A stretch of 64,000 nt of DNA from Myxococcales bacterium (GCA_016792845.1 JAEUKH010000006.1:62899-126898); one strand, 5' to 3'. Counted from the stretch's first letter, positions 54,483 to 62,957 are shown. Numbers and translations: made by a program. Notes: generated from the sequence alone by a model not told the origin.

Positions 54483-55181
54483 ATGGGCGCTCAGTGGAAG
54501 CAAAAGGGACGTGAAGCGGCGGCCAACGCCAAAGGCCGTGTGATGACGAAGCTCTCGAAAGAGCTGATGATCGCCGCACGAAACGGGGCCGACCCGGTGC
54601 TCAACCCGCGGCTGCGGATGGCCGTCGAGGCGGCCCGCAAGGCGTCGATGACCCGCGACACGATGGAGCGCGCGATCAAGAAGGGCGCGGGGCTTCTCAG
54701 CGAGGGCATCGTCTACGAGACGGTGACCTACGAGGGCTTCGCGCCGCACCAGGTGCCGGTGATTGTTGAGTGTTTGACCGAGAACAGAAACCGCACCGCG
54801 GCGAACATCAAGGTGCTCTTTCGCAAGGGGCAGATGGGCAACTCGGGCTCAGTCTCGTGGGATTTTGCGCGGCTCGGGGCCATCGAGGCGACGCCGCCTC
54901 CGGGGGGCGCTGACGCAGACGAGGCCGCGATCGAGAGCGGCGCCCAAGACCTCGCGCCGGGCGACGACGGTGTGACCGAGTTCTACACCGAGCCGACCGA
55001 ACTCGACACCGTGGCCAAGGCCTTGGCCGAGCGCAAATGGACGGTCATCTCGGCGAAGCTGATTTGGAAGGCGAAGAACCCCGTCACCGTCGACGACGCG
55101 GCGCGCGCCGAGGTCGAAGCGTTTCTCGAAGCGATCGATGGCGACGACGACGTCCAGACGCTGTTCGTGGGCCTCGCCTGA
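54483..55181 (+). CDS. yebC: YebC/PmpR-family transcriptional regulator
   Basis: [65 protein letters not shown] is the typical YebC/TACO1 N-terminus. Confidence 0.92.
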
Positions 55182-55214: not shown

Positions 55215-55730
55215 GGTGTGCCGCGTTGCCGTTCCGTCGCTGTGGGTTGCGTGTTAGGGCAGGCACAAGGCCTGCCCTACGTGCGGTCGCCCGTCGTCGG
55301 CCGTCGGTCGCGTGTTCGGGCAGGCACAAGGCCTGCCCCTACGCGTGGTCGTCCGTCGTCGGCCGTCGGTCGCGGATTGGTCGCGTGATGGGGCAGGCAC
55401 GGGGGGCCGCGGCGCCGTGGGGGCGACCCTTGTGGTCGCCCGTCGCCGCCCGTCGTCGCCCGTTGGTCGCGTGTTCGGGCAGGCACAAGGCCTGCCCCTA
55501 CGCGTGGTCGCCCGTCGTCGGCCATTGGTCGCGTGTTGGGGCAGGCACGGGCCGCATTGCCGTTCCGGCGCCGTAGGGGCGACCCTTGTGGTCGCCCGTG
55601 GTCGCCCGTGGTCGCCCGTCGTCGGCCATTGGTCGCGTGTTAGGGCAGGCACAAGGCCTGCCCGTACGTGTGGTCGCCCGTTGTCGCCCGTCGTCGCCCA
55701 TCGCTGCGCCGTCATCGCCCGACGGTCGCG
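55215..55730. repeat. cluster of nested hairpin (REP/BIME-like) intergenic repeats
   Basis: Hairpin GGGCAGGC-ACAAG-GCCTGCCC occurs at 55257, 55318, 55477 and 55643. Hairpin GGGCGACC-CTTGT-GGTCGCCC occurs at 55421 and 55577. The shared flanks are GGTCGCCCGTCGTCGGCC..GGTCGCGTGTT, and GGTCGCCCGT is triplicated at ~55590-55620. Confidence 0.85.
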
Positions 55731-55733
55731 CGT

Positions 55734-56546
55734 TCAACCCCCGGTGTCGCGCGGGCGGTGCGCGAGGGTGAGGCTCGGCAGCGACGCAAGCGGACGGCCT
55801 TCGATCACCTCGATGTGAAGGCTCGGCCACTCGGCCCACTCGGTGCCGAGCGCGCGGTCGAGCACCGTCGTGCCGAGGCCGTAGTGGCCCTTCGAGCGGG
55901 CGTGGTGAAGCGTGTGAAAGAGGTAGGGGTGCACAAACCACGACTTCGCGCGAAGTCCCGCGTCGCGCGGCATCGCCTCGGCGTTGCTGTGGCCCACAAT
56001 GTTGGCCCACGCGTTGAATGTGAAATACGTCAGAAAGCCCGCGGCGCTCAGCGCGCCGACGCGGCTCAGCGCCATCGGCACGAGCAGCGAGCCGACCAGC
56101 CAGCCGAGCGCCTCGACGGTGCTCAATGACTGGCCGCTGAGCGGAGAGGTCACCACCGAGTGATGATGCCAGCGGTGAAAGCGCCAGAGCGCCCGCGTGT
56201 GCAGCGCCCGGTGGAAGCCATAGAAATACAGCTCGAAGCCCACAAAACACAGCAGAAAGGTCACCACCCCGGGCCACAGACCCGCGCGCGTCGGGTGCAC
56301 CCAGCCGCGGGCCACCGCGAGGCTAAAGACCCCCGCGCCGAGCGCGATGAAGCGGGCGTTGCCGAGGGCCTCGTGCCCGAGCTGGCCGGCCTTGCGAGGC
56401 AGTGCGAAAATCTGCCGCGCGCGGCCGAAGGGGCTCCGCTCGAAGGCGAAGCCGAAGGCCACGAAGAGCGCCGTGGTGACGAGAAAATAGAGCGCCCAGG
56501 AGAGCGCGAGGGTGGCCGCCGACCCTGAGAAGAGCCCCAACATCAC
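55734..56546 (-). CDS. fatty acid hydroxylase / sterol desaturase-family membrane protein
   Basis: His boxes are HRALHTRALWRFHRWHHHS, GHSNAE and HTLHHARSKGHYG, with several TM helices. Confidence 0.85.
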   Translation of the reverse strand: MMLGLFSGSAATLALSWALYFLVTTALFVAFGFAFERSPFGRARQIFALPRKAGQLGHEALGNARFIALGAGVFSLAVARGWVHPTRAGLWPGVVTFLLCFVGFELYFYGFHRALHTRALWRFHRWHHHSVVTSPLSGQSLSTVEALGWLVGSLLVPMALSRVGALSAAGFLTYFTFNAWANIVGHSNAEAMPRDAGLRAKSWFVHPYLFHTLHHARSKGHYGLGTTVLDRALGTEWAEWPSLHIEVIEGRPLASLPSLTLAHRPRDTGG

Positions 56547-56587: not shown

Positions 56588-58117
56588 TCAGCGGGCGACG
56601 TTCATGAGCATGAGGGCGCAGTCGTCCTGGCCCATCCCGGCGACGACGGCGCGCACGCCGACGACGGCGACGGTGCGGGCGTCGGGCGAGGTGGCGGCGC
56701 CCCAGAAGAAGTCGTTGGCGCCGCCGAGGTCGAAGAGCTGCGTTCCGTTGGTGCCGAAGGTGGCGTCGCGCGCGCCCGAGGGGGTGAGCACCGCCACCAT
56801 GGCGTCAGAGTTGGTCTCGGTGGGGCGGCCGCCGCCCACCATGATGATGCGGTTGTCGGGCAGCGCGACGAGGGTGCGCGCGTTGTCGTTGAAGTTGTTG
56901 TGGTCGATGCGCACGATGCCCGCGGTGCCGTAGGTGGTGTCGAGGGCGCCCGCGCCGGTCACGCGGAGCGAGAGCCAGTCGATGCTCTCGGTGTTCATGT
57001 TGCGGCCGTAGCCCGCGGTGACGAAGTTCGAGCCCTGCTGCACGGCCGCGTAGGCCTCGGCGACGACGCCCCAGATCGTCTGGGTCCACACGCCGTTGGT
57101 GCCGAAGGTGGCGTCGCGCTGGCCCGCGGGGGTGAGCTTGAAGAGCATGGGCTTCACCACGCCGCCGTCGTTGTAGTAGCCCGCCATGACGATGCTGCCG
57201 TCGGCGAGCACGAGGGCGTTGCGCGGGCTCGCGTCGCGGTTGGCGATGTCGACGGTGACCACGCCGTTGGTGCCGAAGGCCGTGTCGCGGGCGCCATCGA
57301 CCGAGAGCCGCACGACGGCGTAGTCGGTGTCTTGGGCGCCCATGCGCTTGGCCGCGCCGGTGACCACGAGGCGCCCGTCGGAGTACTGCGAGAGGCCCCA
57401 GTTCGAGTCGGCCACGTAGGCCGAGCCGTTGACCTCACCGTCGCTGAGGTCGAGCACCGTGACGCCGTTGGTGCCGAAGGTCGTGTCGAGGGTGCCGTTG
57501 GCGTTGAAGCGAACCACCGCGAGGTCGCGGTCGCGCGCGTCGGCCGCGCCCGCGTGCTCGATGGTGGCCGACACCACGATCTTTCCGCTCGGCTGCACCA
57601 CGATGCCGCGGGCGACCTCGCCGCTCGTGCCCACCACGATGTTGTGGCTCGCGATGCCATTGGTGCCGAAGGTCATGTCGCGGGTGCCGTCGGCGCGGAA
57701 GCGCAGCACGATGGTGCGCGCGTCAGCCGTGGTCTCGGCCGTGTCGGTCATCACGCCGGTCGCGTAGATGTTGCCGTCGGCGCCCCAGGTGACGCCGAAG
57801 AGACGATCATGGCCCGTGCTCGAGAGCGAAATCGCGATCGGCGCGTTGGCCGTGATGCGCCCCATGGCCACGCCGCCGTCAGCGCCGCCCGCGTCGGCGG
57901 TGCCGCCCGCGTCGGTGGTGCCGCCCGCGTCAGCGGTGCCGCCCGCGTCAGCGGTGCCGCCCGCGTCTGTCGATTGACCCGCGTCTGTCGATTGACCCGC
58001 GTCGGTGGTGCCGCCCGCGTCGGCGGCGGGAGTCGGGTCGTCGCTGCAACCGGCCACGAGGGCCAGGGTCGCGAGGGTGCCGAGGAAGGTGCGAAAGATT
58101 GTGCGATTCATTCTCAA
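56588..58117 (-). CDS. delta-60-repeat lipoprotein
   Basis: Lipobox LALVAGCSDD. A tandem TDAG(Q/G)(S/T) low-complexity run follows. D(T/A)(T/A)FGTNG then recurs about six times at ~55-60-aa spacing, which is the delta-60 repeat pattern. Confidence 0.8.
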   Translation of the reverse strand: MRMNRTIFRTFLGTLATLALVAGCSDDPTPAADAGGTTDAGQSTDAGQSTDAGGTADAGGTADAGGTTDAGGTADAGGADGGVAMGRITANAPIAISLSSTGHDRLFGVTWGADGNIYATGVMTDTAETTADARTIVLRFRADGTRDMTFGTNGIASHNIVVGTSGEVARGIVVQPSGKIVVSATIEHAGAADARDRDLAVVRFNANGTLDTTFGTNGVTVLDLSDGEVNGSAYVADSNWGLSQYSDGRLVVTGAAKRMGAQDTDYAVVRLSVDGARDTAFGTNGVVTVDIANRDASPRNALVLADGSIVMAGYYNDGGVVKPMLFKLTPAGQRDATFGTNGVWTQTIWGVVAEAYAAVQQGSNFVTAGYGRNMNTESIDWLSLRVTGAGALDTTYGTAGIVRIDHNNFNDNARTLVALPDNRIIMVGGGRPTETNSDAMVAVLTPSGARDATFGTNGTQLFDLGGANDFFWGAATSPDARTVAVVGVRAVVAGMGQDDCALMLMNVAR

Positions 58118-58186: not shown

Positions 58187-60643
58187 TCAGCGTGCGGGCC
58201 ACTGCCATTCGAGGCTGGCGAACACCTGACGAAAGCCTGCCGGTTGGATGCCCTGGGGGGCCCGGTTGGCGATGTACGCTTGGTTGGTGAGGTTGCGGCC
58301 GTTGAGGGCGACGGTGATGCCCGAGCGGCGCAGGGTGTAGGCGAGGCGGGCGTCGAGGGTGAGCGAGGCGGGGAGGGCGCCGATGAGGCCGTCGGGCGAG
58401 GGAGCCTGGGTGTTCTCGCGGTCGGCGAACTGCGACGAGAGGTAGTTGACGCCCACCTGGGCGGCGACGCCCGCGCGGTGCACGAAGCGGAGCTGCACGT
58501 TCAAGAGGTGCTCGGGCGCGTACGGGAGGCGGTTGCGGTTGAAGAGTCCCGCGGTGAAATCGGCCACCGGCACCCAGGTGTAGCTGACCATCAAGGGCAT
58601 GGCGAAGCTCGACCCGCGGCCGCGGCTGAAGGGGTCGATGACGAGGCTCGCCTCGGTGCCGATGTGGCGGCTCTTGCCGCTGTTGAAGTTGCCGCCCGAG
58701 ACCGTCGCGCCCGACTCGCTTGGGGGGATGATCTGGTTCGAGAATTCGAGCAAGAAGCCCGCGACGTCGAGGTTGAACCAGCGGCCCGCGCGGAGGCGCA
58801 TGCCGAGCTCAGCGTTCCACGAGAGTTCGGCGTCGAGGTTGAGGTTGGCGCCCGCGGCGGAGACGGCGTCGCGGCTCCGGGGCGGGGCGTATCCGCGGTG
58901 AACGCCGGTGTAGACCGTGGTCGCGCGGCTCAGGTCGACGGCCACCCCGAGCCCGGGGATCACCGCGCTCGAGAAGGCGCTTCCGCGCACGAGGGTGTCG
59001 GCGCCGCGGGTGACGCCCATCGCGTCGGTCTGCGGCACGCGCAAGATCGTGCGGTCGCTCAGGTAGTTCTCGACGCGCAGGCCCGGGGTCACGTGCACCC
59101 GGCGCGAGAAGCTGAAGCGGTGCTGCACGGCGGCCGAGAAGGCGTACCCGTTGCGCCGCTCCTCGTCGCGCACGTCGCCCGACTCCTGGTTCGGCCGCGA
59201 GGTCATGTAGATCTGGTCGTGGGCCTGCTCGTAGAGCGCGCGCCCAACGGCGATCAATTCGCCTTCGACGCTGCCGCGCTGCCACGTCCAGGTGAGCCGC
59301 GGCTCGAAGCCCGCGACCTCGAAGCGTCGGTGACGGATGGCCGCGCTCTGGCGAAAGTACAGCAGCGTGCCGCGGCCCGCGTTGACGATGCCTGGGTCGC
59401 CCGGCGCGCGGCACACCCCGAGGCCGTCACAGACCCGCTCGTACTCGACCCCGGCCGCGGTCGAGGGCTCGCGGTCGAACTCCTGGCGCCGCCAGGCGCG
59501 GTCGGTCTCGTAGCCGTAGAGTGACGTTTGTAAGCGGAGGTTCGCGCTCAGCCGGTACTGGTGCACCACCGCGAGGGCGTGGCGGCGCACCTGGAAGAGG
59601 TCATGGTCGCCGAGCGAGGTCGCGGGGTCGTGGCCGAATTGCGCCGTGGTGAGCCCGAGGTAGGTCGCCTGCGACGACTCGTCGTAGAAGCTGAACTTGA
59701 GCCGCAGCGTGGCCCGCGACGAGAGATTGAGCCGCATCCGGGCGGTGACGTCGGTGAGCGCGAGGTTCAGGTCGCGCACGCCGTCAAAGCGGCGGTGAAT
59801 GACGTCGAGCTGCCACCCCACGGGCCCGTGCGTCGCCCCCGCGTACCCGTGGAGCATGAAGTAGCCCTGGTCGCCGAGGCGCAGGGCCACGCCGCCGGTG
59901 GGCGTCTGCGGCGGCTCGCGGGTGATGTAGTTGATCACCCCGCCGATGGTCTGAGGGCCCCACAAGATCTGCCCGCTGCCGCGCACGACCTCGATGCGGT
60001 CCATGCGCTCGATGGGCGGGGTGTAGTAGAGCTCGGGCGCGCCGTACGGGTTCAGCGACAGCGGGATGCCGTCTTCGAGGATGAGCACCTTGCGCGAGCG
60101 GTTGGGGTCGAGGCCCCGGATGCCGATGTTGAGCCGGAGCCCCATCGGGTCTTCGCCCGCCACGTTGACCCCGGGCACCGTGCGCAGCGCGTCGCCGCCG
60201 TGCTGCGGCGCGAGGTTTCGCAGGTCTTCGCGGCGCACGAGGGAGGCCGACCCGGGCAGCCGGTCGAGGCCCCCGCGGTGCGAGCCCACCACCGTGGCCG
60301 CGCCCTCGTCTCCGTCGACCGGCGCGGCCGGGGTGACAGGCGTCGATCGACGTGTGTCGTTCGGTTGACGTGCATCGGTCGATTGACGCGTGTCGTTCGA
60401 CGCATCGACGTCGGTCGCCGCGGGGGCCTCGGGGGGCGCCTCGGCCGCGGGGGTCGGGCGTCGCGTCGCGGGGGCAGGGGCGCCCGATGCGGGCTCCGTC
60501 GGGGGCGCGTCGGGGGCCGCCGCGACGGGCGGAGACGCGGCCTCAGCGGGCGCGACCCTGTCGTCGGCGCGGGCGCGCGCGGGCCAGAGCGAGAGGCCAC
60601 AGAGCGCCGCGGCGGTCGCGACGCGACGGTCAGTCATGGTCAC
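58187..60643 (-). CDS. TonB-dependent outer-membrane receptor
   Basis: A signal peptide and a Pro/Ala-rich extension are followed by a plug domain (ALRTVPGVNVAGEDPMGLRLNIGIRGLDPNRSRKVLILEDGIPL). A long beta-barrel follows, with a conserved C-terminal region (NGRNLTNQAYI...). Confidence 0.9.
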   Translation of the reverse strand: MTMTDRRVATAAALCGLSLWPARARADDRVAPAEAASPPVAAAPDAPPTEPASGAPAPATRRPTPAAEAPPEAPAATDVDASNDTRQSTDARQPNDTRRSTPVTPAAPVDGDEGAATVVGSHRGGLDRLPGSASLVRREDLRNLAPQHGGDALRTVPGVNVAGEDPMGLRLNIGIRGLDPNRSRKVLILEDGIPLSLNPYGAPELYYTPPIERMDRIEVVRGSGQILWGPQTIGGVINYITREPPQTPTGGVALRLGDQGYFMLHGYAGATHGPVGWQLDVIHRRFDGVRDLNLALTDVTARMRLNLSSRATLRLKFSFYDESSQATYLGLTTAQFGHDPATSLGDHDLFQVRRHALAVVHQYRLSANLRLQTSLYGYETDRAWRRQEFDREPSTAAGVEYERVCDGLGVCRAPGDPGIVNAGRGTLLYFRQSAAIRHRRFEVAGFEPRLTWTWQRGSVEGELIAVGRALYEQAHDQIYMTSRPNQESGDVRDEERRNGYAFSAAVQHRFSFSRRVHVTPGLRVENYLSDRTILRVPQTDAMGVTRGADTLVRGSAFSSAVIPGLGVAVDLSRATTVYTGVHRGYAPPRSRDAVSAAGANLNLDAELSWNAELGMRLRAGRWFNLDVAGFLLEFSNQIIPPSESGATVSGGNFNSGKSRHIGTEASLVIDPFSRGRGSSFAMPLMVSYTWVPVADFTAGLFNRNRLPYAPEHLLNVQLRFVHRAGVAAQVGVNYLSSQFADRENTQAPSPDGLIGALPASLTLDARLAYTLRRSGITVALNGRNLTNQAYIANRAPQGIQPAGFRQVFASLEWQWPAR

Positions 60644-62753
60644 CCTCGACGCGGCGGCTGCGAATCTGGAGCGTGGTGGTGAACTCCATCTTCAGAAAGC
60701 TCGTGAGCTCGCGCACCGCCGCGTGGAGGCGCACGACCGCCTCGCGGTCGGCCTCGATGCTCGCGCGGAGGTCGTTGCTGTTGAGGGCCGCGGCGGCCTG
60801 GTCGGCGGCGTTGAGGTCGGCCGCCATGGTCGTCGCGAGGGCGCCCGCACCGGCCGAGCGCAAGAGGTCGTCGAAGCCGAGGTTGTTGCCCGCGGGGCAG
60901 CCCTCAAGGAGCGTGCGGAGGCCGACGATGTTCTGCCGGATGTTGCGCACGCCGCGCCGCGCGAAGGGCGACTCGACGCGGTCGATGCAGCTCGCGCCGG
61001 TGCAGGTGATGCCGAGGGGCGCGCCGAGCCTGAGGTCTTTGGTCTCGGTGTCGGCGTAGCTCGTGGCCTCGGCTACCGCCGAGAGGGCCTCTTGGAGCGT
61101 GGTGTACACGGTGCTCCCGGTGCCTGCGCGGAGGAACTCGTTCGGGTAGTTCGCGGGCTCCCAGGCGGTGCGCACGGCGCGGGCGCGGGTGGCGAGGTCG
61201 CTCGCGAGGGCGCGGGCGGCGCGGGCCCTCAGGCCGAGGCGATCGGCGGGGCTCAGGGCGGCCCAGGTGCCCATGGCGTTGAGCGGCTCGCTGGCCGCGC
61301 AGGCGTTCTCGGCGCCCTCGTAGAAGAGCACGTATTCGAGCGCCGCGAGGCCGCGGGTGCTGACCGACAGCTCGGCCACCGAGGGGGCCTCGTAGGCCCG
61401 GGCGACGAGCTGTTGTTCGACGAGGCAGCGGTTGAAATCGGGCCACGCGTAGAGCTGCGGCCTGAGCCCCTGGCCGCCGAGGGCCTTGAGGTCGCCGAGC
61501 GGGCCGTAGCGCAGCATTTCGGCCTCTTGCCAGTGATCCGAGGCGGCCTCCCAGGCGGCGCGGGCGGGGGCGAGGGTGGCCTCCGAGGGCGCGGCCGCGA
61601 GGGCCTCGGCGGCGGTCGCGAGGGCCGTCGCGCGGTCGACAAAGGTAGTCATGACGCCGGTGGTGCAGGTGGCCATCGCGCGCAGCACCTCGGCGCGGTC
61701 GACCACGGGCGTGTCGTCGCTGCACCCTCCCGCCCCGAGCACGAGGCTGGCGACGGCGAGGGAGGCCACGGGGCGCCACCGGCGGGGGGCCTTGGGTGCG
61801 CCGCCCATGAGCGCCGAGAGGCTCTCCCAGAAGGGGATGGCGAGGGAGCCGAGCACCCCGGCGTTGTGGAGCCGGTCGCCCTCTCCGAGCCCGAAGGTGA
61901 GGGCCTCGGGGGTCTCGCGGGTGGTGTAGAGGCTGCCGCCCCAGCGATCCCACACGCTCAAGATGGTGCCGAAGTTCTTGTCGCGGTGCGCGGCCGAGAT
62001 CGAGTGGTGAACCTGGTGCTGCGCGGGGCTCAAGAGCCACCGTTCGAGGCGCCCGAAGGAGACCCACACCATCGAGTGACGGAGGCTCGCGCCGGTCAAG
62101 TTCCACCCGAAGCCGAGGGCGTCGACGCCGAGGATCTGCCAGGCTTCAAAGTGCGGGCCCGCGAGCCAGGCCCAGAGGCCCGTGACGAGCCCCAGGGTGA
62201 CGGCGCTGCGCAGGGTGTTGAGCCCGGTCTCGACCGGGTGGGTGCGATACAGCGTGAGCGGCGTGAGCACCTCGGCGGCGTGGTGGACCTTGTGAAAAGC
62301 CCACAGCCACGACACCCGGTGCATCAGCTTGTGCACGGCGTAACGGCTCCAGTCTTCGATCGCGAAGGCGAGGAGCGTAAACCCGAGCCCCGCCCACACG
62401 GTCGAGAGGCTCACCGGGCTGTCACCGAGGTGGCGCCGCAGAAAGGCCGCCGTGAGCCCCGCGAGGGCCAGCCGCGACACGAGCGCGGTGCCCTGCGACA
62501 AGAGCCCCAAGGCCGACTTCGCCGCGATGAGCCCGAGGTCGGTGCGCGACGAGCGGTGAAGCCACATCTTCGGCGAGAGCAAGAGCCCCAAGGCCTCGCG
62601 GGCCGAGCCCCCGCGGCGCAACACCACCGCCACCGTGATCGCCAAGGCGCTCAAGAGGTACGGCCCGAACACCCGACGCGAGGGGTCGAGGAACATCGCC
62701 GCAGGTTCGCGAAACGCCGCCAGAATCGGGGCCACCACACCAGTGAATTGCAT
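60630..62753 (-). CDS. single ORF fusing a fatty acid hydroxylase-family membrane domain to an imelysin-like periplasmic domain
   Basis: The N-terminal His boxes are HKLMHRVSWLWAFHKVHHAAE and HQVHHS. At codon 316 (ATG 61808) an in-frame lipoprotein-type signal, MGGAPKAPRRWRPVASLAVASLVLGAGGCSDD, precedes a helical domain with an imelysin-like pattern (ARAAWEAASDHWQEAEMLRYGPLGD). The ORF overlaps the receptor gene by 14 nt. Confidence 0.8.
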   Translation of the reverse strand: MQFTGVVAPILAAFREPAAMFLDPSRRVFGPYLLSALAITVAVVLRRGGSAREALGLLLSPKMWLHRSSRTDLGLIAAKSALGLLSQGTALVSRLALAGLTAAFLRRHLGDSPVSLSTVWAGLGFTLLAFAIEDWSRYAVHKLMHRVSWLWAFHKVHHAAEVLTPLTLYRTHPVETGLNTLRSAVTLGLVTGLWAWLAGPHFEAWQILGVDALGFGWNLTGASLRHSMVWVSFGRLERWLLSPAQHQVHHSISAAHRDKNFGTILSVWDRWGGSLYTTRETPEALTFGLGEGDRLHNAGVLGSLAIPFWESLSALMGGAPKAPRRWRPVASLAVASLVLGAGGCSDDTPVVDRAEVLRAMATCTTGVMTTFVDRATALATAAEALAAAPSEATLAPARAAWEAASDHWQEAEMLRYGPLGDLKALGGQGLRPQLYAWPDFNRCLVEQQLVARAYEAPSVAELSVSTRGLAALEYVLFYEGAENACAASEPLNAMGTWAALSPADRLGLRARAARALASDLATRARAVRTAWEPANYPNEFLRAGTGSTVYTTLQEALSAVAEATSYADTETKDLRLGAPLGITCTGASCIDRVESPFARRGVRNIRQNIVGLRTLLEGCPAGNNLGFDDLLRSAGAGALATTMAADLNAADQAAAALNSNDLRASIEADREAVVRLHAAVRELTSFLKMEFTTTLQIRSRRVEGDHD

Positions 62754-62775
62754 CGCTCGACCTCAAGTATAATCC

Positions 62776-62790
62776 TGAGACTCAGTCTCA
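62776..62790. promoter_or_regulatory. 7-1-7 perfect palindrome, candidate operator in the divergent promoter region
   Basis: TGAGACT-C-AGTCTCA. It extends imperfectly to AATCCTGAGACTCAGTCTCAGAATG. It is preceded by TATAAT (62767-62772) and lies 23 nt upstream of the 62753 start codon. Confidence 0.4.
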
Positions 62791-62957
62791 GAATGTTGTC
62801 GCCGCGTACCAGTTTGTCGCGTCGGCTGTCAACGGCGATGCGCGCCTTCGCGGGGCGAAATGCGACGTGTCGGCTCTGTTTTTCGGGCCTCACTGCGACC
62901 CGGGGGCCGCGCAGAGCGGGTGACGGCGGTCACGAACTGTGCAAGAGCTGGGGCATT

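Follow-up and report, generated by a model that had tools for sequence, protein, structure and literature searches.

In the TbpA/TbpB-FbpABC systems of Neisseria and Haemophilus, an outer-membrane TonB-dependent receptor and one or more accessory lipoproteins feed an FbpA-type ferric-binding protein and the FbpBC importer. A second type of system relevant to this locus is FbcH, where a polytopic inner-membrane protein at the N-terminal end, an internal signal peptide and a periplasm-facing partner come from a single gene, and signal peptidase yields the two subunits of one pathway. FbcH is the cytochrome b/c1 precursor of Bradyrhizobium japonicum that was reportedly described by Thöny-Meyer et al. 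in 1991. Imelysin-fold proteins are also found in iron-regulated operons. The motif state GxxxxE is that of the IPPA family, IPPA/PA4372-VC1266-type imelysin-like proteins occur in Fur-regulated imelysin/di-haem-peroxidase operons, and EfeO-family imelysin domains have been found with an EfeU permease fused to their N-terminus (Xu et al. 2011, PMC3143127).

The gene discussed here lies in a 64,000-nucleotide stretch of DNA from a Myxococcales bacterium, which is referred to as the window. It joins an FA_hydroxylase module (HYD, also used for the subfamily) to an imelysin domain (IME) through an internal lipoprotein signal, and it is followed by the gene of a TonB-dependent receptor (TBDR). The original prediction offered two interpretations, a membrane-tethered fusion or a full-length fusion accompanied by an internally initiated lipoprotein. 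A third option, splitting at the lipobox, appears to fit best. With a probability of about 0.6, the open reading frame encodes a precursor ("polyprotein") of two proteins of an iron-regulated, TonB-dependent uptake system that would be split post-translationally at the lipobox.

Organization of the locus

The features of the locus are listed in Table 1. The claim that the receptor gene overlaps the precursor gene by 14 nt is correct if the receptor starts at the GTG at 60643; the overlap is 8 nt with the ATG start of the public gene calls, which give an 816-aa product. The best NCBIfam match of the receptor is FecA-like and far below the cut-off. As originally described, a delta-60-repeat lipoprotein gene and a second hydroxylase gene (HYD2) follow closely on the same strand, after gaps of 69 and 41 nt. 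In the Polyangiales version of the cluster, the delta-60 gene is conserved in third place, and the order [HYD+IME]-TBDR-delta60 recurs in nine related loci (L008-L012, L014, L016-L018). The window contains no FbpABC, ExbBD or TonB gene.

Table 1. Features of the precursor locus (positions counted from the first letter of the window)
Feature	Position	Strand	Remarks
Precursor gene: HYD module, internal lipoprotein signal and imelysin	60630..62753	-	707 codons plus stop, ATG start
HYD, polytopic inner-membrane FA_hydroxylase-family module (predicted)	61809..62753	-	codons 1-315; three His boxes; Pfam
Internal signal peptide (predicted)	61725..61808	-	codons 316-343; n-region KAPRRWR, h-region helix 324-343, lipobox A-G-G
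Predicted mature imelysin-like lipoprotein	60633..61724	-	codons 344-707; first residue invariant Cys344; GxxxxE type; six conserved Cys
TonB-dependent receptor, Plug and barrel	58187..60643	-	own signal-peptidase-I signal ...ARARA, followed by DD
Delta-60-repeat (DUF5122 beta-propeller) lipoprotein	56588..58117	-	TIGR02608, 214.7 bits
HYD2, second FA_hydroxylase-family gene	55734..56546	-	FA_hydroxylase 73 bits
Fur-like operator (candidate), 23-bp palindrome	62772..62794	.	core TGAGACT-N-AGTCTCA (7-1-7), 11-nt arms, 91% complementary
Weak second Fur-like site TGAGAATGAATCGCA	58102..58116	sequence read on - strand	start of delta-60 gene; three mismatches to window operator

A candidate operator is located between a TTGACA hexamer (62827-62832) and the start codon of the precursor gene. 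Its exact 15-mer is unique in the window, and it agrees with the Fur 7-1-7 core at no more than about 10 of the 14 positions. Near-canonical Fur boxes occur at the same position in homologous Polyangiales loci, for example TTGATAATCGTTATCAA in L008. The second Fur-like site is only a lead because about 0.9 matches of this weakness would be expected by chance. No sigma-70 promoter was found in the window by a strict scan.

The hydroxylase and imelysin domains

Codons 1-315 had been assigned to a His-box membrane hydroxylase, and this assignment is borne out. Pfam FA_hydroxylase (PF04116) matches residues 127-273 with 76.6 bits against a cut-off of 31, and HYD homologues score 72-88 bits. The three His boxes are H141-x3-H145, H154-x2-HH158 and H246-x2-HH250. 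Both alignments (30 and 56 sequences) show all eight His-box histidines as well as H172 and H226 without variation, and HYD is predicted to be a functional metalloprotein because the di-iron ligands are invariant. The AF2 model of HYD has a pLDDT of 92. Model and hydropathy together suggest six helices in addition to the signal helix; by analogy, the His boxes are placed in the cytoplasm. HYD ends in an amphipathic helix (residues 300-318). Further invariant residues, H66, S68 and D72, are predicted to face the periplasm. No significant PDB match was obtained for the HYD fold, either with Foldseek (best E=3) or in a profile search of PDB sequences (nothing at E<=1); this may reflect the sensitivity of the methods on helical membrane proteins.

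The original prediction of an imelysin-like helical domain in the second half also holds. Pfam Peptidase_M75/imelysin (PF09375) covers residues 371-684 (131 bits, cut-off 23.5), and the domain has the two four-helix-bundle fold. It was matched by Foldseek to 4ecg (E=5e-7, TMt 0.72), 3pf0 (TMt 0.79) and 7xrx (ICMP), more weakly (E 0.03-0.04) to EfeO (7wgu) and EfeM (7q1g), and by sequence to 3n8u. The imelysin motif is GxxxxE (R467-G468-L-A-A-L-E473, aligned to RGFHTLE of PIBO) and not GxHxxE, and contains no His; G468 is conserved at 90% or more and E473 is invariant. Six Cys residues are conserved in the imelysin half, compared with about one in HYD. These six Cys and the similarity of the fold to IrpA-like, ICMP, EfeO and EfeM structures suggest that the imelysin half is periplasmic.

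Relatives of HYD in iron-uptake clusters

HYD was found in at least 592 genome stretches, among them stretches from cultured marine Colwellia, Pseudoalteromonas, Marinomonas and Zhongshania. When it is not fused, HYD sits in DUF4856-imelysin-TBDR-HYD(-FbpABC) clusters. An imelysin, DUF4856, TBDR or FbpA-type substrate-binding protein (SBP) is encoded beside HYD in 74 of the 80 related loci, and this synteny spans Gamma- and Alphaproteobacteria, Myxococcota and Bdellovibrionota. At L042, the neighbours of HYD include an imelysin of the ICMP type and a DHOR di-haem protein. The Colwellia SBP matches the FbpA structure 1q35 with E=9e-105; a weak NCBIfam match, far below the cut-off, to a 2-aminoethylphosphonate binding protein was rejected because the PDB comparison shows that the protein is FbpA-like. 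No dedicated reductase, ferredoxin, electron donor or second permease recurs near HYD in more than 12 of the 80 loci. By inspection, recurrent neighbours include kinase-like, LysR-type regulator-like and housekeeping genes.

The density of Fur-box matches is 1.92 per kb before the first cluster gene in gamma- and alphaproteobacterial loci and 0.065 per kb elsewhere, an enrichment of about 29-fold (p=2.7e-26). The link of imelysin and TonB receptor to iron, which the original prediction had taken from established knowledge, is backed by predicted Fur-type operators, namely by the enrichment before clusters, the Polyangiales boxes and the window palindrome. On genomic evidence, HYD emerges as an apparently iron-regulated protein that had not been described before and that accompanies iron-uptake genes in hundreds of bacterial species, and no paper linking this HYD family to iron uptake was found in the literature.

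It had been considered unusual that two lipid oxygenase-like proteins are paired with a receptor. HYD is a member of the cluster in 74 of the 80 loci and this part of the pairing stands. HYD2 is 28% identical to HYD, in the His-box region only, and no HYD2-type neighbour is present in any of the 80 related loci; it was therefore rejected as a member of the system and is regarded as a distant paralogue. The 425-aa hydroxylases of the P0116 type were likewise set aside as distant paralogues, with an unrelated context (caspase, RDD, HSP70).

Imelysin is not the only fusion partner. Other members of the HYD subfamily are fused to TonB-dependent outer-membrane barrels, FbpA-type ferric-binding proteins or di-haem peroxidases (CCP), and HYD is always N-terminal in these fusions to other exported partners and is joined to them through a predicted internal signal peptide. 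In 55 of the 59 non-imelysin HYD fusions, the n-region is basic and is followed by a hydrophobic core and a small-x-small site. In the barrel fusions, HYD is followed by a signal-peptidase-I-type signal and then by the outer-membrane barrel. Cleavage is the only workable reading for HYD-barrel fusions because a barrel that is tethered to an inner-membrane domain cannot assemble. A Fitch count on an NJ tree gave 28 gains or losses of fusion, the tree being too rough for more than "several independent events". One of the HYD-TBDR fusions (P0066) comes from the genome record of Paraliomyxa miuraensis.

The internal lipoprotein signal

Codon 316 is an ATG (61806-61808) and the stretch MGGAPKAPRRWRPVASLAVASLVLGAGGC, followed by SDD, puts Cys344 at 61722-61724. 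The signal of the window protein consists of KAPRRWR, a 17-residue uncharged run and A-G-G-C344, and begins at residue 316 and not at the N-terminus of the translated polypeptide. To call it a "textbook" lipoprotein signal was slightly generous: the basic n-region, the uncharged run and Cys344 are all present, but the canonical Leu at -3 is missing. The lipobox Cys is found in 57 of 57 homologues. Position -1 is Gly in 31 of these, Ser in 11, Thr in 8 and Ala in 7, Thr being outside the classical consensus. The uncharged run ahead of the Cys is 11-19 residues long, the net charge of the n-region is +1 to +5, and position +2 is mostly Thr or Ser, with Asp in 5 of the 57. About 41 of 43 standalone imelysin orthologues have an N-terminal lipoprotein signal when judged by eye (29 by a strict regex). 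The internal signal is homologous to the true N-terminal signal of these orthologues, and conservation at the junction is that expected of a lipoprotein signal, beyond what an anchor would need. In the full-chain model (pLDDT 88, pTM 0.83) the lipobox is the sole internal segment with a pLDDT below 50. To our knowledge, signal peptidase II has not been documented to act on a signal located behind a membrane domain of six helices.

Could the signal-like helix simply remain in place? In an uncleaved, tethered fusion it would be a seventh transmembrane helix that holds imelysin at the periplasmic face of the inner membrane. The whole-chain pTM, which suggests a defined mutual arrangement of the two halves, is in keeping with tethering, and so is the Asp at +2 in five homologues, as Asp at this position is an inner-membrane retention signal in E. 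coli. The fusion of EfeO-family imelysin to an N-terminal EfeU permease provides a precedent for such an arrangement (Xu et al. 2011, PMC3143127). However, a pure anchor needs neither an invariant Cys nor the small residues in front of it, and the segment is homologous to signals that are cleaved in the standalone orthologues. The predicted disorder of the lipobox and the requirement for cleavage in the sister fusions to outer-membrane barrels also speak against tethering, and a permanent tether is considered rather unlikely.

The original prediction also raised initiation at codon 316. An extra start at the ATG at 61808 would give an ordinary prolipoprotein alongside the full-length fusion. 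This ATG directly precedes a complete n-h-c signal, and in-frame ATG, GTG or TTG codons are present in the n-region of most homologous loci. Met316, however, is kept in only 3 of 57 homologues and Arg is the commonest residue in that column. No conserved internal ribosome-binding site was found in 12 loci: a Shine-Dalgarno-like motif precedes an in-frame internal start in two of them and not in the window. Myxobacterial genes often have no Shine-Dalgarno sequence, so some additional internal initiation may still occur. Because the Cys is invariant and Met316 is not, internal initiation is disfavoured and export followed by cleavage at the lipobox is favoured, and a conserved internal start was rejected as the main mechanism. 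Dual products would also leave the fate of the full-length chain unsolved; this chain must be made, as no stop codon ends the hydroxylase. Initiation at codon 316 is therefore improbable.

A further possibility is that HYD is an ordinary lipid hydroxylase of the OlsE, sphingolipid or sterol type that is co-expressed with iron genes, and that its fusions are neutral accidents. The best NCBIfam match is indeed the ornithine-lipid hydroxylase OlsE, with 36.6 bits for the window protein and 62.2 bits for the Colwellia homologue. Unfused HYD and partner genes overlap or abut (8-nt overlap to 7-nt gap in L030, L040 and L068), so a stop codon could easily be lost. The OlsE scores, however, are far below the cut-off of 475 bits, the synteny is kept across all the lineages named above, and at least four different exported iron-pathway partners have been fused. 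Moreover, the HYD-IME fusion is retained down to 39% identity, and induction under Fur control of an enzyme that itself needs iron points to a role in acquisition. A lipid-remodelling role with accidental fusions is very improbable.

Authenticity of the fusion

The claim of a single uninterrupted open reading frame was reproduced: the 707 aa are read in one frame. GC3 is 0.90-1.00 per 30-codon block from codon 31 on, linker included (0.73 in the first block), and this continuity through the linker argues against a hidden frameshift. The identical 707-aa product was called in three independent read-set assemblies (SRR12425364, SRR10555725, SRR12425353) in addition to the NCBI MAG. The architecture is common to 56 further protein clusters with 39-52% identity to the window protein. 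The fusion is genuine and conserved. The window apparently comes from a metagenome-assembled genome, but the proposal that sequencing or assembly merged two ordinary genes is already effectively refuted by the three identical products, the diverged homologues and the continuous GC3.

A search for homologues with a stop codon between the halves had been suggested. The fusion is intact in the 56 other clusters; an unfused HYD-then-IME order is known from L038, and the reversed IME-then-HYD order from L019, L024, L033 and L041. Of the matches P0061, P0062 and P0086, the look-up covered P0062. This imelysin-only match was rejected as a "split" homologue, as its locus (L004) has no hydroxylase. P0060 was rejected too; it looks like a fusion whose imelysin homology is lost soon after the lipobox. 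It had been proposed that the idea would fail if the architecture were widespread and already characterised. Widespread it is; no characterisation of it was found in the literature.

Proposed mechanism and significance

In the precursor model, the first 315 residues would form a polytopic di-iron (His-box) protein of the inner membrane. Both the catalytic face and the C-terminus of this protein are predicted to be cytoplasmic from the known topology of the superfamily, hydropathy and the AF2 helices. Export of the imelysin domain would follow, with residues 316-343 serving as an N-in/C-out signal helix; Lgt would acylate Cys344, and signal peptidase II would cut before it. The released lipoprotein would probably go to the outer membrane, next to the receptor, since position +2 is mostly Thr or Ser, and the signal helix would remain on the hydroxylase as an extra transmembrane segment. 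The receptor gene may be translationally coupled to the precursor gene, and the operon would lie behind the predicted Fur-type operator.

HYD would thus be a conserved inner-membrane component of the pathway. The best guess as to its role, which is speculation, is a redox or oxygenase step tied to the release or assimilation of iron at the inner membrane. A broader and rather doubtful proposal is that the HYD subfamily is an unrecognised inner-membrane iron-handling component built on the di-iron fold of the fatty acid hydroxylases, either a counterpart of EfeU/FTR1 or a membrane ferric reductase/oxidase. It might be fed by imelysin, DUF4856 or FbpA-type proteins downstream of the TBDR, and might repeatedly be encoded as a self-splitting precursor with an exported partner, outer-membrane barrels included, for 1:1 output at the same translocon.

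With HYD, iron-uptake loci of the TonB-receptor/imelysin/FbpABC kind gain a fourth component that is conserved and apparently unstudied. Imelysin-type systems still have no clear mechanism, and in several cluster types HYD is the only encoded inner-membrane protein. Genetics should be feasible in Colwellia, Pseudoalteromonas, Marinomonas and Zhongshania. The fusions form a natural series of precursors: the polypeptide begins as an inner-membrane protein and continues as a lipoprotein, a periplasmic binding protein, a peroxidase or even an outer-membrane beta-barrel. They could serve as a test bed for the handling of internal signals by Sec, Lgt/Lsp, signal peptidase I, Lol and BAM. Annotation would benefit as well, as "sterol desaturase family protein" or "TonB-dependent receptor" is at present the only name that hundreds of these genes carry.

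Comparison with known systems

Like the TbpA/TbpB-FbpABC systems, the Colwellia-type clusters have a TBDR, lipoproteins and FbpABC. The accessory proteins are different (DUF4856, imelysin and delta-60), and the additional membrane hydroxylase has no counterpart among the Tbp and Fbp proteins. HYD shares its Pfam membership and the HX3H/HX2HH/HX2HH di-iron ligand set beside transmembrane hairpins with OlsE, Scs7p/FA2H, ERG3/ERG25, CrtZ and AGMO. Unlike these characterised enzymes, the HYD subfamily has two additional N-terminal helices, matches no solved structure in sequence or fold, and has iron-uptake proteins as genomic partners, with no lipid-pathway genes nearby.

The GxxxxE variant, the predicted lipoprotein or periplasmic location and the apparent iron regulation are shared with the imelysins of the IPPA/PA4372-VC1266 type. 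No hydroxylase has been described in those operons, whereas the imelysin of the window is made as the C-terminal part of a membrane protein. The resemblance to EfeUOB and to EfeU-EfeO fusions (Xu et al. 2011, PMC3143127) is that an inner-membrane protein is coupled, and sometimes N-terminally fused, to an imelysin-fold periplasmic protein. There is also a link to peroxidases in both, here through HYD fusions to di-haem CCP, and both appear to be Fur-regulated iron uptake systems, here from predicted operators. The membrane partner, however, has a His-box di-iron fold in place of a REXXE permease, the imelysin is of the GxxxxE type, and a TonB-dependent receptor is included. Among the neighbours of HYD in the 80 loci there is no recurrent FTR1/EfeU, cupredoxin or DyP domain, and of the EfeUOB domains the window has only the M75-like one.

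The layout resembles that of FbcH, with a polytopic membrane protein, an internal signal and an exported partner of one pathway, although here the layout is predicted. The same layout is expected, from inferred topology, for 55 of the 59 other HYD fusions. FbcH uses signal peptidase I, whereas the window signal is a lipobox for signal peptidase II. Both products of FbcH stay in one complex, whereas the window lipoprotein would likely leave the inner membrane, and the sister HYD fusions may even release outer-membrane barrels.

Organization of the proposed precursor gene and its neighbors

Residues 127-273 of the precursor match the Pfam family FA_hydroxylase (76.6 bits, cut-off 31) and residues 371-684 match Peptidase_M75/imelysin (131 bits). 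The N-terminal module (HYD) contains three His boxes, H141xxxH145, H154xxHH158 and H246xxHH250. GC3 per 30-codon block is 0.90-1.00 from codon 31 onward, linker included, and 0.73 in the first block; because it is high in all blocks, one coding frame runs throughout the ORF. The TonB-dependent receptor (TBDR) gene starts ahead of the precursor stop: with its GTG as start codon the two genes share 14 nt, and with the ATG used in public gene calls they share 8 nt.

Features of the precursor cluster and its surroundings in the window
Feature	Position	Strand	Remarks
Hybrid histidine kinase/response regulator, 753 aa	62829-64000 (cut by window end; L088:6244-8505)		Divergent upstream neighbor; HisKA, HATPase_c, Response_reg
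Fur-like palindrome, 23 bp	62772-62794		Core TGAGACT-N-AGTCTCA; arms 91% complementary; same position as in Polyangiales loci
HYD-imelysin precursor	60630-62753	-	Single reading frame, ATG start, 707 codons
H66, S68, D72 of HYD	~62538-62558		H66 conserved at >=90%; S68 and D72 invariant
Cys344	61722-61724		Lipobox Cys
TBDR	58187-60643	-	Plug + barrel (Pfam); downstream of precursor
Weak Fur-like 7-1-7 site	58102-58116	-	TGAGAATGAATCGCA as read on this strand; overlaps start of delta60 gene
Delta-60-repeat lipoprotein (delta60)	56588-58117	-	TIGR02608, 214.7 bits; same strand as precursor
HYD2	55734-56546	-	FA_hydroxylase family, 270 aa; same strand as precursor
Tandem-repeat array	55245-55733		Directly downstream of HYD2; periods 62 and 159 nt, 81-91% matches
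232-aa ORF	54483-55181	+	Resembles YebC/PmpR-family transcriptional regulators by eye; converges on cluster end

Gene calls in three independent read-set assemblies, in addition to the NCBI MAG ('Myxococcales bacterium'), give the identical 707-aa protein, and 56 further full-length clusters with both domains (683-731 aa), 39-52% identical to the precursor, were found among 5.8 billion clustered proteins. These assemblies and diverged clusters show that the fusion is old and maintained; it is apparently found in Polyangiales and other Myxococcota. A merging of two genes during sequencing or assembly is effectively ruled out by the identical ORF in three assemblies, the diverged homologues and the continuity of GC3. 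The original prediction was accurate in describing a single hydroxylase-imelysin ORF with an internal lipoprotein signal, an overlapping TBDR gene and downstream genes on the same strand, and in offering a genuine fusion as one of its two readings. It had also paired two hydroxylase-family proteins with the receptor. HYD2 is 28% identical to the fused HYD, in the His-box region only, and has no counterpart in any of the 80 related loci classified; its presence in the operon-like array is specific to the window genome.

Several other features of the region were noted. The kinase/regulator gene adjoins the precursor gene in the organism's three independent assemblies. The TBDR has a ~90-residue Pro/Ala/Thr-rich, low-complexity linker from signal peptide to Plug, and mature delta60, after its lipobox LVAGC followed by SDD, has a long low-complexity start and T(T/A)DAGG-type repeats. 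The array downstream of HYD2 holds GGCAGGC...GCCTGCC hairpins and long spurious ORFs in all six frames, and looks like REP-like or terminator-rich intergenic DNA.

The junction as an internal lipoprotein signal

Codon 316 is an ATG that opens the segment MGGAPKAPRRWRPVASLAVASLVLGAGGC followed by SDD. In an alignment of 57 full-length fusions the Cys344 column is Cys in all 57, preceded at -1 by G (31), S (11), T (8) or A (7), by an uncharged run of 11-19 residues and, in the 12 residues ahead of that run, by a net charge of +1 to +5. The signal had been called textbook; its n-region, core and Cys are in place, but the lipobox reads A-G-G-C where L-x-G-C would be expected. An AlphaFold2 model built on the 56-sequence alignment (pLDDT 88.3, pTM 0.83) has a helix at 324-343, and 342-347, the lipobox, is the sole internal segment with pLDDT <50. 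The ORF joins a conserved internal lipoprotein signal to an exported-type C-terminal domain. Six conserved cysteines in the imelysin half, versus about one in the hydroxylase half, fit an oxidizing compartment.

Internal initiation at codon 316, which would yield the lipoprotein as a separate product, had been suggested as well, and in-frame start codons are present in the n-region at the DNA level. However, Met316 occurs in only 3 of the 57 fusions, Arg being commonest in that column, and a Shine-Dalgarno-like motif precedes one of the in-frame starts in only 2 of 12 loci, the window not among them. The earlier interpretation is partly supported: the fusion is genuine, internal initiation lacks support, and HYD2 does not belong to the system. 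Standalone imelysin orthologues of related clusters have an N-terminal lipoprotein signal in ~41 of 43 cases by eye (29 by strict regex), so the internal segment is the signal, kept in the fusion, of a downstream gene that was once separate.

The HYD subfamily is also fused to TBDRs, FbpA-type solute-binding proteins (SBPs) and di-haem cytochrome c peroxidases, and is always N-terminal. HYD-TBDR fusions form ~45 clusters of 1000-1200 aa, one from a Paraliomyxa miuraensis genome record. At the non-imelysin junctions a basic n-region, hydrophobic core and small-x-small site are found in 55 of 59 proteins (e.g. ...LALPVVSRA before DE, ...SGAAQA before ED, ...LLAA before DM). Since an outer-membrane barrel covalently tethered to an inner-membrane protein cannot reach the BAM assembly machinery, the only reading of HYD-TBDR fusions that works is one in which they are cut at the internal signal, and by parsimony the lipobox-type HYD-imelysin fusion is probably cleaved likewise. 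Acidic or Pro-rich linkers after the internal signals of HYD-TBDR fusions resemble those of delta60 and the window TBDR. Di-haem CCP_MauG peroxidases are fused or adjacent to HYD in proteins P0244 and P0252 and at L066:7962-10074 and L003:14519-15748, and protein P0230 has an Exo_endo_phos domain instead; both are partner types beyond imelysin, TBDR and FbpA.

Genomic context of HYD

An exhaustive profile search with HYD alone gave 632 representative clusters at E<=1e-30, the best 150 of which are mostly standalone proteins of ~300-350 aa. At least 592 genome stretches encode a HYD relative (one genome per species), and neighboring ORFs were classified in the best 80. Imelysin, DUF4856, TBDR or FbpA-type SBP genes lie beside HYD in 74 of these 80 loci, with assignments above Pfam threshold; a 75th (L042) has an ICMP-type imelysin and a DHOR di-haem protein on the opposite strand. 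No other protein recurs near HYD in the related loci, including a reductase, ferredoxin or FTR1-type permease.

The precursor is coupled to a TBDR in the Polyangiales layout, window included, which is [HYD+imelysin]-TBDR-delta60; the window has no FbpABC, ExbBD or TonB genes. Marine Gammaproteobacteria (Colwellia, Pseudoalteromonas, Paraglaciecola, Porticoccaceae, Zhongshania and others) have DUF4856-imelysin-TBDR-HYD, followed in some by SBP-FbpB-FbpC; the Colwellia SBP matches FbpA structures (1q35, E=9e-105). A layout found mainly in Alphaproteobacteria is DUF4856-HYD-SBP-FbpB(-FbpC); in five loci HYD is fused to the SBP. A Bdellovibrionales MAG (L039) has DUF4856-imelysin-[HYD+TBDR]-ExbB-ExbD-TonB and shares its imelysin-[HYD+TBDR] core with L077, where no ExbBD/TonB matches were found, and L002 (Paraliomyxa), which lacks DUF4856. 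The most complete fully unfused version seen is the DUF4856-imelysin-HYD-TBDR-ExbB-ExbD-TonB operon of L021, divergent from an FbpA-B-C operon; two Fur-like 15-mer pattern matches lie in the promoter region between them (L021:4568-4641).

Regulation

Sequences matching the Fur box at >=14 of 19 positions lie between -300 and +30 of the first cluster gene in 24 of 41 gamma- and alphaproteobacterial loci, at a density of 1.92/kb versus 0.065/kb elsewhere (binomial p=2.7e-26). The fused loci of Polyangiales have a TTGACA hexamer and, after it, a Fur-type 7-1-7 palindrome, e.g. TTGATAATCGTTATCAA (L008) and TTGATAACGGTTATCAG (L010). The candidate Fur-type operator of the window is a GC-shifted version matching ~10 of 14 Fur core positions. 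Together with the Fur boxes of related loci, this palindrome makes iron-responsive control of the window operon by a Fur-family repressor likely. About one match like the weak site at the start of delta60 is expected per window by chance.

Proposed mechanism

HYD would insert in the inner membrane so that its His boxes and C-terminus face the cytoplasm, and helix 324-343 would export the imelysin domain. Lgt and Lsp would then acylate and cut the precursor at Cys344, and the released lipoprotein may move to the outer membrane, a destination proposed because 36 of the 57 fusions have Thr or Ser at +2. The di-iron ligands of HYD are invariant. More speculatively, HYD would carry out a redox or oxygenase reaction, or accept iron, at the inner membrane. 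The helix map suggests that H66, S68 and D72 cluster where the second helix ends on the periplasmic side, well away from the cytoplasmic His boxes; periplasmic partners could use them for docking or as a relay site.

Comparison with known systems

Foldseek places the imelysin half in the imelysin fold, with strong matches to 4ecg, 7xrx and 3pf0 and weak ones to EfeO and EfeM. Its motif is GxxxxE, without the His of GxHxxE, as in the IPPA family (Xu et al. 2011, PMC3143127). HYD is a Pfam FA_hydroxylase member with intact His boxes; no relative among solved structures was detected by sequence or fold search, and OlsE, the curated equivalog that fits it best, falls far short of the cut-off score. 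In its speculative role HYD would occupy a position analogous to that of EfeU in EfeUOB. The EfeU-EfeO fusions described by Xu et al. (2011, PMC3143127) and the HYD-peroxidase fusions speak for this analogy, but loci that already have an FbpBC importer weaken it. In the literature covered, which included few subscription journals, no paper was found that connects the HYD family to imelysin, to DUF4856 or to iron uptake through TonB-dependent receptors.

Cleavage of a precursor at an internal signal has precedents, FbcH being one. The HYD fusions would resemble FbcH in this respect and would differ in lipobox use and in release of an outer-membrane barrel; we know of no other internally split precursor that does either. 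The finding probably combines a Fur-regulated TonB/imelysin uptake system with a signal-peptidase-processed precursor, both of known kinds, and the unexpected element is HYD, a widespread and apparently uncharacterized membrane component.
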